DNA of 40,218 nt from Escherichia phage CLB_P1. The notes under the pieces were generated by a model that did not search any database, was not told the DNA's origin, and saw only the letters and a program-made list of their open reading frames with translations. Location: the sequence record KC109329.1. One strand, written 5' to 3'. Below, piece by piece: positions 20,435-34,335 of the stretch (position 1 is its first letter; each line of letters starts with the position of its first letter). A program made the translations under genes and the position numbers.

Positions 20435-21322
20435 ATGTCTCAATCAGTTTATGCCGAGTTCGGCGTTAGCTCTAATGCAATCACTGGTTCCGTTGAGGAC
20501 CTGAACGAACACCAAAAGTCTATGCTTGAACAGGACGTAGCTGTTCGTGATGGTGACGACGCTATTACCTTCAAGCAACTGGAAGCCGAAAACGAAGAGG
20601 CTACCGAAGAAGACGAGAACGTCGAAGAGGCTGAAGGTGAAGAAGAAGACCACGAGTCCGATGACGAAGAGTCTGAGACCGATGGTGAGCAGCCTGAGTT
20701 CATTGAACTGGGTGATGCACCGAAAGAGCTGACCGAAAGTGTCACCGCTCTGGATGAAAACGAAGCTGCATTCGACGACATGGTGTCTTCTGCTGTGGAA
20801 GCTGGCAAGGTCACTGCTGATGAAATTACCGCTATCAAGGCTGAATACGCCAAGGACGGTAAGCTGTCTGACGCATCCTACGCTAAGTTGCAGGAAGCAG
20901 GTTACACCAAGCGTTTCGTAGATTCGTTTGTCCGTGGTCAGGAAGCTCTGGCTGAACAGTATGCTGCTGGAGTGGTTCGCTACGCTGGTGGAGCTGAACA
21001 GTTTAACCGCATTCTGTCTCACCTTGAGTCAACCGACCCGTCAACTCGTGAGGCACTGGAAGCTGCTATCGTTCGTAAGGACATTGCGACTACCAAAGCT
21101 CTGCTGAATCTGGCTGGCAAGACTCTTGGTAAAGCTGTAGGCGTTAAACCTCAGCGTACCATCACCAATCAGGCTAAACCTGTGGTAGCACCTAAGGCTC
21201 CTAAGACCGAAGCATTCAGCTCTAAGGCTGACATGATTAAGGCTATGAGTGACCCGCGATACCTGCGTGACGCTAAGTACACGATGGAAGTGCGCGCTAA
21301 GGTAGCTGCATCGAGCCTGTAG
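20435..21322 (+). CDS. Capsid assembly (scaffolding) protein, T7 gene 9 homolog
   Basis: 295-aa highly acidic protein with an EEDE-rich region between portal and capsid genes. Confidence 0.88.
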   Translation: MSQSVYAEFGVSSNAITGSVEDLNEHQKSMLEQDVAVRDGDDAITFKQLEAENEEATEEDENVEEAEGEEEDHESDDEESETDGEQPEFIELGDAPKELTESVTALDENEAAFDDMVSSAVEAGKVTADEITAIKAEYAKDGKLSDASYAKLQEAGYTKRFVDSFVRGQEALAEQYAAGVVRYAGGAEQFNRILSHLESTDPSTREALEAAIVRKDIATTKALLNLAGKTLGKAVGVKPQRTITNQAKPVVAPKAPKTEAFSSKADMIKAMSDPRYLRDAKYTMEVRAKVAASSL

Positions 21323-21323
21323 G

Positions 21324-21346
21324 ACTAAACTATCACTATAGGGAGA
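21324..21346 (+). promoter_or_regulatory. Phage RNAP promoter, best consensus copy (ACTAAACTATCACTATA/GGGAGA), phi10 equivalent
   Basis: Full core plus GGGAGA initiating sequence, followed by an AU-rich leader and strong RBS before the capsid gene. Confidence 0.75.
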
Positions 21347-21448
21347 CCAAGAGACAGACTCAAGGTTTCCCTATTACTTCAGTCCATACGGATTGGGCGT
21401 ACAGTAAGTAATAAACTTTATCTTTCAATTGAATAGGAGAATTATCAT

Positions 21449-22498
21449 ATGGCAAACGTTCCGGGTCAGAAAATTGGTACAGACCAAGGTAAAGGCAAAT
21501 CCAGTTCCGACGCTCTGGCGTTGTTCCTGAAGGTCTTTGCTGGTGAAGTCCTGACCGCATTCACTCGCCGCTCTGTAACGGCTGACAAGCATATTGTCCG
21601 TACCATTCAGAACGGTAAGTCTGCTCAGTTCCCGGTCATGGGTCGCACCTCTGGTGTGTATCTGGCTCCCGGTGAGCGACTGTCCGATAAGCGCAAAGGT
21701 ATCAAACATACCGAGAAAGTGATTACCATTGACGGTCTGCTGACTGCTGATGTGATGATTTTCGACATTGAAGACGCGATGAACCACTATGACGTGGCTG
21801 GTGAGTATTCCAACCAGCTAGGTGAAGCTCTGGCTATCGCTGCTGATGGTGCGGTTTTAGCTGAAATGGCTATCCTGTGCAACCTTCCGGCTGCATCCAA
21901 CGAGAACATCGCTGGTCTTGGCAAAGCGTCTGTGCTGGAAGTTGGTACTAAAGCCGACCTGAACACTCCGGCTAAGCTGGGTGAAGCAATCATCGGTCAA
22001 CTGACCATTGCTCGTGCGAAGCTGACATCCAACTACGTTCCTGCTGGCGACCGTTACTTCTACACCACGCCGGACAACTACTCTGCAATCCTCGCGGCTC
22101 TGATGCCGAACGCTGCTAACTATGCTGCGCTGATTGATCCAGAGACTGGTAACATCCGTAACGTAATGGGCTTCGTGGTTGTTGAAGTTCCACACTTGAC
22201 TCAGGGTGGTGCTGGTGAAACTCGTGGTGATGACGGCATCACTATCGCTTCCGGTCAGAAGCACGCCTTCCCGGCTACTGCTACTGGTGATGTTAAAGTT
22301 GCGCTGGACAACGTTGTGGGCCTGTTCTCTCACCGTTCTGCCGTAGGCACTGTTAAGCTGCGTGATTTGGCGCTGGAACGTGACCGTGACGTCGATGCTC
22401 AGGGCGACCTGATTGTTGGTAAGTACGCTATGGGTCACGGTGGTCTGCGTCCAGAAGCAGCAGGCGCACTGGTTTTCACAGCAGCGTCAGCGGGTTAA
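21449..22498 (+). CDS. Major capsid protein 10A
   Basis: GTDQGKG, LALFLKVF.GEVLTAF.R, GKSAQFPV.GRT, KHTEKVITIDGLLTADV, NHYDV, MPNAANYAALIDPE.G.IRNVMGF.VVEVPHLT.GGAG, GHGGLRPEAAGA as in T7 gp10A. Confidence 0.97.
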   Translation: MANVPGQKIGTDQGKGKSSSDALALFLKVFAGEVLTAFTRRSVTADKHIVRTIQNGKSAQFPVMGRTSGVYLAPGERLSDKRKGIKHTEKVITIDGLLTADVMIFDIEDAMNHYDVAGEYSNQLGEALAIAADGAVLAEMAILCNLPAASNENIAGLGKASVLEVGTKADLNTPAKLGEAIIGQLTIARAKLTSNYVPAGDRYFYTTPDNYSAILAALMPNAANYAALIDPETGNIRNVMGFVVVEVPHLTQGGAGETRGDDGITIASGQKHAFPATATGDVKVALDNVVGLFSHRSAVGTVKLRDLALERDRDVDAQGDLIVGKYAMGHGGLRPEAAGALVFTAASAG

Positions 22499-22761
22499 CG
22501 ACCTTTAAGGCCCTCTCTACCGAGGGTCCTACCTTAGAGACGTATAGTTCTACGGTGGGAACCAGCTTGAAGGTTGACTTCCCTGAGCTTTCAGATGTGA
22601 CCGACTGGTCACTGCTTGATGTTGCTACGCCTGATGGTGTTAGTTACTCCCGTAGAACCAACAGTCTCTACTTCAGGGCCACCTCTGGCGTGGAAGGTCT
22701 AGTGATTGTTGAGTATGACGGTTCGCCTGTGCGTTCCTTCAACGTATCTTTCACAAACTAA
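21449..22761 (+). CDS. Minor capsid protein 10B made by a -1 ribosomal frameshift at G GUU UUC (22471-22477)
   Basis: -1 frame is open from the slippery site to TAA at 22759-22761 (94-aa extension); heptamer is identical to the T7 gene 10 frameshift site. Confidence 0.6.
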
Positions 22762-22764
22762 TTG

Positions 22765-22806
22765 AAACCCCTTGGGTGCCTTCGGGTGCTTGAGGGGTTT
22801 TTTTTG
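22765..22806 (+). terminator. Intrinsic terminator after the capsid gene (T-phi equivalent)
   Basis: AAACCCCTTGGGTGCCTTCGGGTGCTTGAGGGGTTT hairpin followed by TTTTTTTT; closely resembles the T7 T-phi hairpin. Confidence 0.85.
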
Positions 22807-22820
22807 CTTAAGGAGGGCCT

Positions 22821-23387
22821 ATGGCTCAATACATTCCACTAAATGCTAACGATGACTTAGATGCCATCAACGATATGTTAGCTGCTATCGGTGAACCAGC
22901 AGTCCTACAGCTTGACGAAGGTAACGCTGACGTCTCGAACGCTCAACGTATCCTGCATCGTGTCAATCGTCAGGTCCAAGCTAAAGGCTGGAACTTTAAC
23001 ATCAACGAAGCTGCTGTCCTGACGCCTGATGTCCAAGACAACAGGATTCGATTCCTGCCGTCTTACCTTCGGGTCATGACTGCTGGTGCTACCAGTTACT
23101 ACAGCAACATGGGGGGCTATCTCTATGACCTGTCCACTCAGTCCACGACATTCACTGGACCAATTACAGTCGAACTGGTGGAGATGAAACCGTTCGCTGA
23201 GATGCCTGTAGTATTCCGTGACTACATCGTTACCAAGGCCAGCCGTGAGTTCAACGCTAAGTTCTTCGGTAGCCCAGAGTCTGAACTGTACCTTCGTGAG
23301 CAGGAAGCAGAACTCTATCAGCAGGTCATGGAATACGAGATGGACACTGGTCGCTACAACATGATGTCCGACATCGGGAGGGACTAA
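22821..23387 (+). CDS. Tail tubular protein A (T7 gene 11 homolog)
   Basis: A.NDILA.IGEP, NA.RIL...NRQ.Q..GW.FNI.E, GGY.YD...QS, VTKASR.FN..FFG.PE, MEYEMD.G.YNM as in T7 gp11. Confidence 0.9.
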   Translation: MAQYIPLNANDDLDAINDMLAAIGEPAVLQLDEGNADVSNAQRILHRVNRQVQAKGWNFNINEAAVLTPDVQDNRIRFLPSYLRVMTAGATSYYSNMGGYLYDLSTQSTTFTGPITVELVEMKPFAEMPVVFRDYIVTKASREFNAKFFGSPESELYLREQEAELYQQVMEYEMDTGRYNMMSDIGRD

Positions 23388-23614
23388 TGGCTAGTCACAA
23401 CCTGAAGATTCACCGCCGACACTTTGGCCCGGTACAACTAGGTCTAAAGACAGCAGAGCTGAGACTTAACGACCGGGACTTTAAGGTTGGCGACTGGCTT
23501 ATCCTGAATGAGTGGGACAACGGGTATACTGGACAACAGGTAGCGCGTAAGGTTATCCACATTGCTGACGTTGGTGACATCGCTGAAGGATACGTCCTAA
23601 TGAGTATGATTTAA
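23387..23614 (+). CDS. Hypothetical 75-aa protein between tail tubular genes A and B (possible ASCH/PUA-like small domain)
   Basis: ATG overlaps gp11 stop; no counterpart between T7 genes 11 and 12; domain guess is from general resemblance only. Confidence 0.5.
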   Translation: MASHNLKIHRRHFGPVQLGLKTAELRLNDRDFKVGDWLILNEWDNGYTGQQVARKVIHIADVGDIAEGYVLMSMI

Positions 23615-33293: not shown

Positions 33294-33311
33294 ACTATCA
33301 CTATAGGAAAC
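33289..33311 (+). promoter_or_regulatory. Phage RNAP promoter (ACTAAACTATCACTATA/GGAAAC)
   Basis: Consensus core; phi17 position upstream of the tail fiber gene. Confidence 0.65.
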
Positions 33312-33357
33312 GGGAGGCGCTACCATAGGTCTCCATTTAAATCACAAAGGAGGCATA

Positions 33358-34335
33358 ATGTCCACGATTACACAATTCCCTTCAGGAAACACTCAGTACA
33401 GGATTGAGTTCGACTACCTAGCCAGAACGTTTGTTGTTGTTACGCTGGTGAATAGCTCTAACCCTACCCTTAACCGTGTACTGGAAGTTGGTCGAGATTA
33501 CCGATTCCTTAATCCAACGATGATTGAGATGTTGGTTGACCAATCAGGTTTCGACATCGTTCGTATTCACCGTCAGACTGGAACTGACTTAGTGGTAGAC
33601 TTCAGGAATGGCTCAGTGTTGACAGCTAGCGACCTGACCAATGCAGAGCTTCAGGCTATCCATATTGCAGAAGAAGGTCGAGACCAAACGGTTGACTTAG
33701 CGAAGGAATATGCCGATGCTGCTGGTGACTCTGCTGGCAACGCTAAGGATAGCGAGGACGAAGCACGACGAATCGCTGAGAGTATCAAGGCAGCTGGTCG
33801 AATTGGCTATATTACCCGTCGCTCCTTCGAGAAAGGCTTCAACGTTACAACATGGAACGAGGTCCTGTTATGGGAAGAGGATGGTGAGTATTACCGCTGG
33901 GATGGTACGCTTCCAAAGAACGTTCCTGCTGGTTCAACTCCTAACACCGCTGGGGGCATTGGTTTAGGTGCGTGGGTTGGCGTTGGTGATGCATCATTGC
34001 GCAGCAATTTATCAGAAAATGATGGCGCCTTGATAGTAGGTGGAGCTATTCTTGAATGCCAAACGGTAGCACAGGCGCAAGAGATATCTGGTTTAACGGA
34101 AGGTCGAAAGGTAAGAACATACTATTATAATGTCCCAGTTGTAACAGATTGGGTGTTCACCCCCACCGCGCCGTCCGGTGGGGTTTTCTACATTCCCGCT
34201 GTCGGTGGTTACTTGATATTAATGACGCCTAACTTCGCTTCCGCTGGCATTATTGAAGGTGAATATGTTCCGCTAAACGCCGCACATAACCGTAATGTAA
34301 TTCAAAAAACTGGTAAGAGACACAAGATTCAGTAA
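33358..34335 (+). CDS. Tail fiber protein, conserved N-terminal tail-attachment domain with divergent, shorter C-terminal part (325 aa)
   Basis: N-terminal ~150 aa align with T7 gp17 (F.YLAR.FVVVTL, DYRF, LVDF..GS.L.A.DL, H.AEE.RD); remainder unlike T7 and lower GC from about 34000. Confidence 0.85.

Follow-up and report, generated by a model that had tools for sequence, protein, structure and literature searches.

Programmed -1 ribosomal frameshifting between 10A and 10B, the two products of the T7 capsid gene (gene 10), was reportedly described by Condron, Atkins and Gesteland in 1991. The T7 gene 10 shift site is G_GU U_UU C, of which G_GU constitutes the X_XX part (review of ribosomal frameshifting, PMC5009743). 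Here we report an analysis of gene 10 of Escherichia phage CLB_P1 within a 40,218-nucleotide (nt) window, that is, the whole stretch of DNA analysed (sequence record KC109329.1; coordinates are those of this window, on the + strand unless stated). A first-pass annotation of the window had proposed that a GGTTTTC heptamer close to the capsid gene's end directs a programmed -1 frameshift giving a longer 10B, and comparison with relatives supports this at the level of sequence: CLB_P1 gene 10 very probably encodes 10A together with a minor, frameshifted 10B, whose extra tail is predicted to be a flexible linker and a small immunoglobulin-like (Ig-like) domain presented on the surface. Frameshifting between 10A and 10B in the T7 family is already known, including the variant annotated for phages CR8 and Peacock; what is added here is a prediction that the tail is Ig-like, the observation that it is widespread and often mis-annotated, the boundaries of the cassette that encodes it, and a conserved hairpin in a non-canonical position.

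Frameshifting at this heptamer is shown in the relatives T7, Kvp1 and K1F, and detection of the long form comes from the annotation of CR8. For the T7 relative Kvp1, mass spectrometry proved -1 slippage at TTTTCA, the same U-run (PMC2579914), and in K1F the C-terminus of gene10b has been fused to GFP, giving fluorescent virions (PMC6277420), and to adhesins, which are also carried by virions (PMC13370021). Citrobacter phage CR8 (Caroctavirus) has the same heptamer in phase and a gp10B (YP_009004195.1) whose tail is 50% identical to that of CLB_P1 (E 1.5e-26); its 10B is annotated as a joined coding sequence (CDS), with the tttt run marked and with the note 'matches in mass spectrometry analysis; predicted translation by a -1 internal frameshift', and our literature search on CR8 proteomics found no paper describing it. 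The minor capsid protein of Escherichia phage Peacock (QEG09703.1) is likewise a joined CDS, of the same length as the CLB_P1 product and with a note citing CR8, at 96.8% nucleotide identity and ~97% identity in the tail. CR8 and Peacock are other phages, and their product names and notes, in the incomplete form displayed, do not mention a fold. Since both records annotate the joined product, the long 10B of this type (phrog_7473, see below) is already known to annotators and rarely applied; among the records inspected, a joined frameshift CDS is found only in Peacock and CR8. A search of 5.8 billion proteins for deposited fused forms yielded no independent confirmation, the best 120 matches all being of 10A length.

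A second precedent is offered by T3 and phiYeO3-12, in whose gp10B a -1 frameshift late in gene 10 likewise appends an Ig-like domain. T3 differs in its slip site, C CCA AAG (with a lysine codon), and in its tail, which belongs to the Pfam family Big_2 (E 4e-10). T3 10B, together with A2 and A118, falls in the class of Fraser et al. (2006; cited in PMC13320782), in which Ig-like domains are appended to structural proteins by frameshifting, and PMC5009743 attributes to Fraser et al. the view that recombination moves Ig-like domains about, with capture out of frame in some cases. CLB_P1 joins a T7-type slip site to a tail of the T3-like functional class that belongs to a different family.

Shift site and -1 reading frame in CLB_P1 and its relatives

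The heptamer of CLB_P1 lies 19 nt upstream of the 10A stop, its first base (22471) being the third base of a 0-frame codon, and inspection of the reading frames confirmed the phase cuG GUU UUC that had been proposed for positions 22471-22477. Counting from 22423, past a TAA at 22420-22422, the -1 frame meets no stop until TAA at 22759-22761. The conceptual 10B (21449..22477, then re-read from 22477) is 437 amino acids (aa) long with the junction ...GALVF/HSSVSG... (the slash marking the shift point), and it contains 94 trans-frame residues, a net gain of 88 aa over 10A; the stop position, protein length and 94-aa extension given in the first-pass annotation were all correct. Predicted tryptic peptides of 10B include ALSTEGPTLETYSSTVGTSLK in the tail and ...PEAAGALVFHSSVSGLTTFK at the junction.

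T7 carries the identical heptamer in the same phase and at the aligned position (...GAVVF/QSGVML...), a few codons before the 10A stop, which bears out the earlier statement that T7 10B is made at this same heptamer, and its -1 open reading frame (ORF) likewise ends just ahead of a Tphi terminator carrying CCCC. The two phages differ in their tails: T7 has 56 trans-frame codons, such that its 10B is 10A plus 53 aa, as against 94 in CLB_P1, and its short non-Ig tail (EETLTPAQEAARTRAAN...) is unrelated in sequence to the linker and predicted Ig-like domain of CLB_P1. The extension had been described as unrelated to, and longer than, that of T7 (~53 aa), and both points hold. We found no homology of the CLB_P1 tail to the T7 10B tail, a trait that defines the T7 10B protein family and not the mechanism.

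K1F, the type species of the same genus, shares the shift site (...GALVF/QPSGVS...) and has a 10A identical to that of CLB_P1 at 337 of 349 residues. Up to GGTTTTCA the two phages are ~95% identical in DNA, and from AAC TAA onwards, the Tphi-like terminator included, their sequences are identical again; between these same boundaries K1F has a T7-type 48-residue tail in place of the phrog_7473 cassette of CLB_P1. Against K1F, with matching flanks and unrelated DNA across the whole tail, the latter behaves as a cassette whose limits are the shift site and the terminator, and this fits the published recombination view of Ig-like domains.

The comparison set comprised 69 loci, namely CLB_P1, GenBank records and 56 IMG/VR contigs, and the 68 domain-bearing loci cover Kayfunavirus, Przondovirus and Caroctavirus CR8. 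In 65 of the 69 loci GGTTTTC is kept in phase at a distance of 9-18 nt upstream of the 10A stop, and is followed in these by a -1 ORF of 91-103 codons; L061 was missed by the anchor motif, yet carries the heptamer. The -1 frame runs uninterrupted from the shift point to a conserved VTDW motif in 68 of 68 loci, the 0 and +1 frames contain stops between the site and VTDW in all of them (68/68), and the frame is kept across all four linker lengths (37, 39, 40 and 52 codons). The nearest -1 stop lies 21 nt upstream of the site in some loci and the 0-frame stop lies 9 nt downstream in others, so that a shift site common to all is confined to ~30 nt, and within this interval the heptamer is the sole motif that permits re-pairing in the A site once a -1 slip has occurred.

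The GTT and TTC of the heptamer are invariant in the 64 unique sequences. The last 60 codons of 10A include 23 conserved codons that are four-fold degenerate; the third base is invariant in only two of these, one being the heptamer GTT, and the third base of three other conserved valine codons near the 10A end varies freely in the same sequences. By this comparison the heptamer is conserved beyond the amino-acid requirement, under a constraint at synonymous positions. GGTTTTC is not enriched: the window has two copies, and 4.5 would be expected counting both strands. What sets the heptamer above chance is where it lies and in which phase, how well it is conserved, and that a conserved coding -1 ORF follows it; its mere occurrence does not. 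The second copy, at 34182-34188, is also in a slip-prone phase (xxG GTT TTC) and lies inside ORF 33307-34335, a tail-fibre/tailspike-adaptor gene (Pfam Phage_T7_tail and Tail_spike_N), where the -1 frame is open for just ~15 codons and a slip would truncate the product; this copy is probably incidental.

Two contigs have altered tails. In L023:1501-1659 (IMGVR_UViG_2974604219_000001) a deletion begins at tail codon ~54 and reaches into the terminator, such that 10B would run into downstream sequence, and in L064 (IMGVR_UViG_3300045988_007064) the last beta-strand of the tail is replaced. These variants suggest either that the domain is dispensable or that the assemblies contain errors.

The predicted Ig-like tail and its distribution

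A Pfam search with the tail returned no family at E values up to 1, and a PDB sequence search returned no structure covering it, only the 10A body being solved. Tail residues 15-94 match positions 2-82 of the 82 positions of phrog_7473 (E 9.1e-35), a family whose function is unassigned. AlphaFold2, using a 37-sequence alignment, predicts that residues 1-17 are disordered (predicted local distance difference test, pLDDT, below 50) and that residues ~21-94 form a seven-strand all-beta domain (pLDDT about 90) with Ig-like structural neighbours; the tail model overall has a mean pLDDT of 79.9 and a predicted template modelling score (pTM) of 0.61. An exhaustive profile search of 1.84 billion representatives produced just 13 matches, and those beyond short phage ORFs are large proteins, with 3-9 matched stretches each, that carry BACON, Big_2, Invasin_D3/Big_1/Filamin or Big_3 repeats. 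The predicted structure and these weak remote matches point to a divergent member of the bacterial Ig-like superfamily. The tail lies outside the recognised Ig-like sequence families (Big_2, I-set, FN3, PKD), with phrog_7473 as its sole family match. Homology to the Big_2 tail of T3 was considered and rejected (no BLASTP match, a hidden Markov model score of -0.5 bits and an hhalign probability of 0.3%).

The domain is widespread, with tblastn searches using the 94-residue tail identifying 454 phage records, at 75-100% identity in Kayfunavirus and ~40% in the Klebsiella phages of Przondovirus. A few domain-bearing records have odd labels, including OR786095.1, 'Staphylococcus phage MBBL139' (78% identity), and a 'Flammeovirga agarivorans' partial protein, and PQ039553.1 is 78,696 bp long, twice the normal genome length, with the domain in two places; mislabelling, contamination or concatemeric assembly is the likely cause in these cases. 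Mis-annotation is systematic, the tail being entered as a separate 68-87-aa protein or 10A being labelled 'minor capsid protein'.

On a practical level, the annotation of CLB_P1 gene 10 would be corrected to one gene encoding two capsid proteins, with no separate 68-aa 'hypothetical protein', and the same correction would apply to most of the 454 domain-bearing records (Kayfunavirus, Przondovirus and Caroctavirus). Many of these 454 phages are candidate therapeutics against E. coli, Klebsiella, Salmonella and Enterobacter, and a displayed Ig-like domain could affect adherence to mucus, capsule or biofilm, and hence pharmacokinetics and immunogenicity. K1F, which is without the domain, already serves as a non-adherent scaffold for displaying foreign Ig-like adhesins at the exact position where its relatives carry a natural one.

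Alternative readings and the proposed mechanism

We consider it improbable, although the least so of the alternatives weighed here, that the -1 ORF is an unexpressed relic or that 10B is a functionless by-product of slippage. The absence of the domain from K1F and the truncated tails of L023 and L064 would be explained in this way, and T7 10B is dispensable in the laboratory. A relic should not, however, bear the mark of purifying selection seen in the domain, where third-position diversity is 0.226 against 0.099/0.086, and 0.125 against 0.038/0.035, a pattern that matches that of the linker described below. The domain is also kept at 40-50% identity across three genera and 454 records, and the synonymous constraint on the heptamer likewise speaks against decay.

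A different interpretation is that the downstream ORF is an independent small gene of 68 aa starting at GTG 22555. Most records of relatives annotate a separate CDS of 68-87 aa ('hypothetical protein' or 'minor capsid protein'), and all 152 database homologues of the tail are stand-alone calls. We nevertheless judge this interpretation very unlikely. The stand-alone calls start at five or more non-conserved positions (alignment columns 8, 12, 20, 23 and 27), which differ between lineages, and no start codon for a stand-alone domain is conserved across the loci. In CLB_P1 the sole start available in the tail frame is GTG 22555, with no ATG, GTG or TTG from 22423 up to that position and no Shine-Dalgarno sequence ahead of it, and both the predicted beta-strand 1 (residues 22-26) and the phrog profile match (from residue 15) begin upstream of it. 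The ORF, moreover, always overlaps the end of 10A in the -1 frame behind the heptamer.

The stop-free stretch upstream of GTG 22555 also evolves as -1 coding sequence. Between the 10A stop and GTG 22555, linker diversity at -1 frame codon positions 1, 2 and 3 is 0.141, 0.123 and 0.242 in Kayfunavirus and 0.069, 0.034 and 0.156 in Przondovirus, and variant codons of the linker divide into 23 synonymous and 39 nonsynonymous when read in the -1 frame, compared with 10/50 (p = 0.009) and 7/53 (p = 0.001) in the other two frames. A simple count of variable sites by codon position in the linker was not significant (p = 0.46 and 0.25), two divergent sequences making nearly every site variable; the diversity-weighted and synonymous/nonsynonymous measures were used in its place. 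We regard this signature, drawn from sequence comparison, as supportive and not decisive alone.

Slippage of the phage RNA polymerase on the T-run, adding one U, would give the same downstream frame, and there is a run of four T at the shift point, far below the run lengths known for transcriptional slippage. We consider this reading very unlikely. What is conserved is the whole heptamer, with the G that precedes GUU and the C that follows UUU, in one fixed codon phase, a pattern that is the signature of tandem tRNA re-pairing, and T7 gene 10 is classed as ribosomal frameshifting (PMC5009743).

Our preferred reading, which we hold to be very probable, is ribosomal frameshifting at the heptamer to produce a 10B with a predicted Ig-like domain. 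Most ribosomes would read 21449-22498 to yield 10A (349 aa), while a minority would slip back one base with tRNA-Val and tRNA-Phe on GUU and UUC and re-pair on GGU UUU. In this tandem slippage tRNA-Val would move from GUU to GGU, keeping two of three positions, and tRNA-Phe from UUC to UUU, after which CAC AGC... would be read in the -1 frame to TAA 22759-22761 to yield 10B (437 aa). The longer protein would retain the whole HK97-fold capsid body, with the last 6 residues of 10A swapped for a flexible linker of ~20 residues and an Ig-like beta-sandwich of ~74 residues.

In T7-type gp10 the C-terminus faces outwards from the shell, a topology on which display on T7 and K1F relies, and the Ig-like domain is therefore expected on the capsid surface. 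Displayed copies would be sub-stoichiometric, their number being set by the frequency of the slip. By analogy with other phage Ig-like domains (PMC13320782, PMC13370021), for which weak binding to carbohydrates, mucins or cell surfaces would be the expected property, the CLB_P1 domain may act as a weak accessory adhesin for glycans of the host surface or mucus. For CLB_P1 itself we infer the production of 10B and its level, the frameshift level, and the surface location, adhesive function and ligand of the domain.

Several observations weigh against this reading. Firstly, the first base of the heptamer is altered in three loci, to A GUU UUC in L026 and to C GUU UUC in L062 and L068, which implies lower frameshifting or reliance on A-site slippage alone. 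Re-pairing in the P site is imperfect (GUU to GGU). Secondly, a canonical stimulator is not found 5-9 nt 3' of the heptamer, the 68-nt downstream fold being ordinary (z = -1.3), and an upstream Shine-Dalgarno-like stimulator is likewise not found as a conserved element across the loci; as there is neither a stable structure at that distance nor a conserved upstream element, the efficiency of frameshifting is not predictable and may be low. Thirdly, the linker coding signal is based on ~19 codons, and the CR8 note is silent on peptides specific to the extension. Finally, half of the domain is lost in L023 and the domain is wholly absent from K1F, so it seems to be dispensable in some settings.

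Two further observations touch the same elements. In L026, L062 and L068 the -1 frame nonetheless enters the homologous domain, the tail of L026 being longer at 103 codons. The only AGG, located 6 nt upstream of the heptamer, was considered as a stimulator and rejected, as the codons there vary freely.

Downstream RNA elements and the gene 10 locus

A hairpin is present downstream of the site in every lineage, starting at +19 nt in Przondovirus and at about +31 in CLB_P1 (22507-22530; Table 1). In the CLB_P1 hairpin 90.5% of cells are paired across 14 lineage sequences; no compensatory change was found in these 14 sequences, for which reason the covariation test is uninformative for this lineage. 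A second predicted hairpin at 22527-22560 adjoins the first, both being inside the linker-coding region, and the 137-nt region around the two folds better than shuffled sequences (z = -3.1). The 22507-22530 hairpin is too distant from the heptamer for the canonical 5-9 nt spacer.

The Przondovirus hairpin has 18 bp (L007:1321-1363; alignment A3 columns 27-69) and is 98.9% paired in 34 sequences. At two adjacent pairs both partners are replaced, A-U by G-C in 11 sequences and C-G by U-A in 9, with G·U intermediates, and none of 500 shuffles reaches the observed values for cells paired, cells changed on both sides or covariation score; the other two measures, which tally pairs or pair types, did no better than the shuffles. 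The compensatory changes alter residues of the -1 linker, T to V and S to P (SARTVTPSEYE compared with SARVVTPPEYE), and because they are nonsynonymous they hint at selection on the RNA of the hairpin. The covariation may represent perhaps only one or two evolutionary events, and this hairpin too is too distant from the site to be a canonical frameshift stimulator.

A longer-range effect has a precedent in T7, where frameshifting is affected, for reasons that are unexplained, by a CCCC of the Tphi terminator that lies >200 nt 3' of the site (PMC5009743). The equivalent CCCC of CLB_P1 is at 22768-22771, 291 nt 3' of the site; should this element or the hairpin act here, a short reporter such as 22440-22520 could under-report the frequency of frameshifting.

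These features allow a more speculative proposal, which we advance only tentatively and think unlikely: that the phrog_7473 tail represents a distinct, hitherto uncharacterised family of capsid-displayed Ig-like adhesins, carried between T7-family phages on a mobile cassette with the heptamer and the Tphi terminator as its recombination boundaries, and that its copy number per capsid is tuned by non-canonical, longer-range RNA elements, be it the downstream hairpin (19-31 nt away), the terminator CCCC or both, instead of by an adjacent stimulator. If this is so, these phages would be natural counterparts of the engineered K1F::Ig-like display phages, and they would also provide a workable system in which to address the long-range influence, unexplained so far, on frameshifting in T7 gene 10. 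More generally, the sharp boundaries of the cassette and the occurrence of three unrelated 10B tails in one subfamily exemplify the use of frameshift sites as docking points for accessory domains.

The features of the locus are collected in Table 1.

Table 1. Features of the gene 10 region of CLB_P1, in window coordinates
Feature	Position	Strand	Basis or remark
Phage RNA-polymerase promoter upstream of gene 10 (phi10 equivalent), ACTATCACTATAGGGAGA	21329..21346	+	Exact pattern match
Shine-Dalgarno AGGAGA of gene 10	21435..21440	+	Read from sequence; matched in position by an annotated ribosome-binding site in Peacock
Gene 10A, major capsid protein, 349 aa, 0 frame	21449..22498	+	ORF; Pfam Gp10A-like, E 3e-105
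Slippery heptamer G GUU UUC (GGTTTTC)	22471..22477	+	Phase cuG GUU UUC verified; aligns with those of T7 and K1F
-1 frame linker, trans-frame residues 1-20 (HSSVSGLTTFKALSTEGPTL)	22477..22536	+	Predicted disordered
Hairpin, core GGCCCUC ucuacc GAGGGUC, ~30 nt 3' of the heptamer (about +31)	22507..22530	+	RNAfold prediction
-1 frame predicted Ig-like beta-sandwich, trans-frame residues 21-94, with the TAA stop of 10B	22537..22761	+	
Tphi-like intrinsic terminator, 17-bp stem and T8, 3 nt past the 10B stop	22764..22805	+	Terminator scan

The region 21300-22900 is a 100% nucleotide match to Kayfunavirus CLBP1 (OZ035730.1, a record without annotation) and is 94-97% identical to many K1F-like coliphages (genus Kayfunavirus, subfamily Studiervirinae, T7 group). 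Residues 1-344 of 10A are matched by the PDB capsid proteins 9vvq, 7y23 and 2xvr. Promoter-like sites sharing ACTATCACTATAGG number seven in the window against 0.03 expected, all on the + strand (5467, 17499, 20320, 21329, 26011, 33294 and 39459), and the full ...GGGAGA is found only at the one before gene 10; the T7 and T3 records annotate phi10 at the equivalent relative position. Further downstream, tail tubular genes 11 and 12 flank a 75-aa ORF (23387-23614) with matches to DUF3850 (E 5e-19) and ASCH; several Kayfunavirus relatives have such an ORF, whereas T7 is without a gene at that place.

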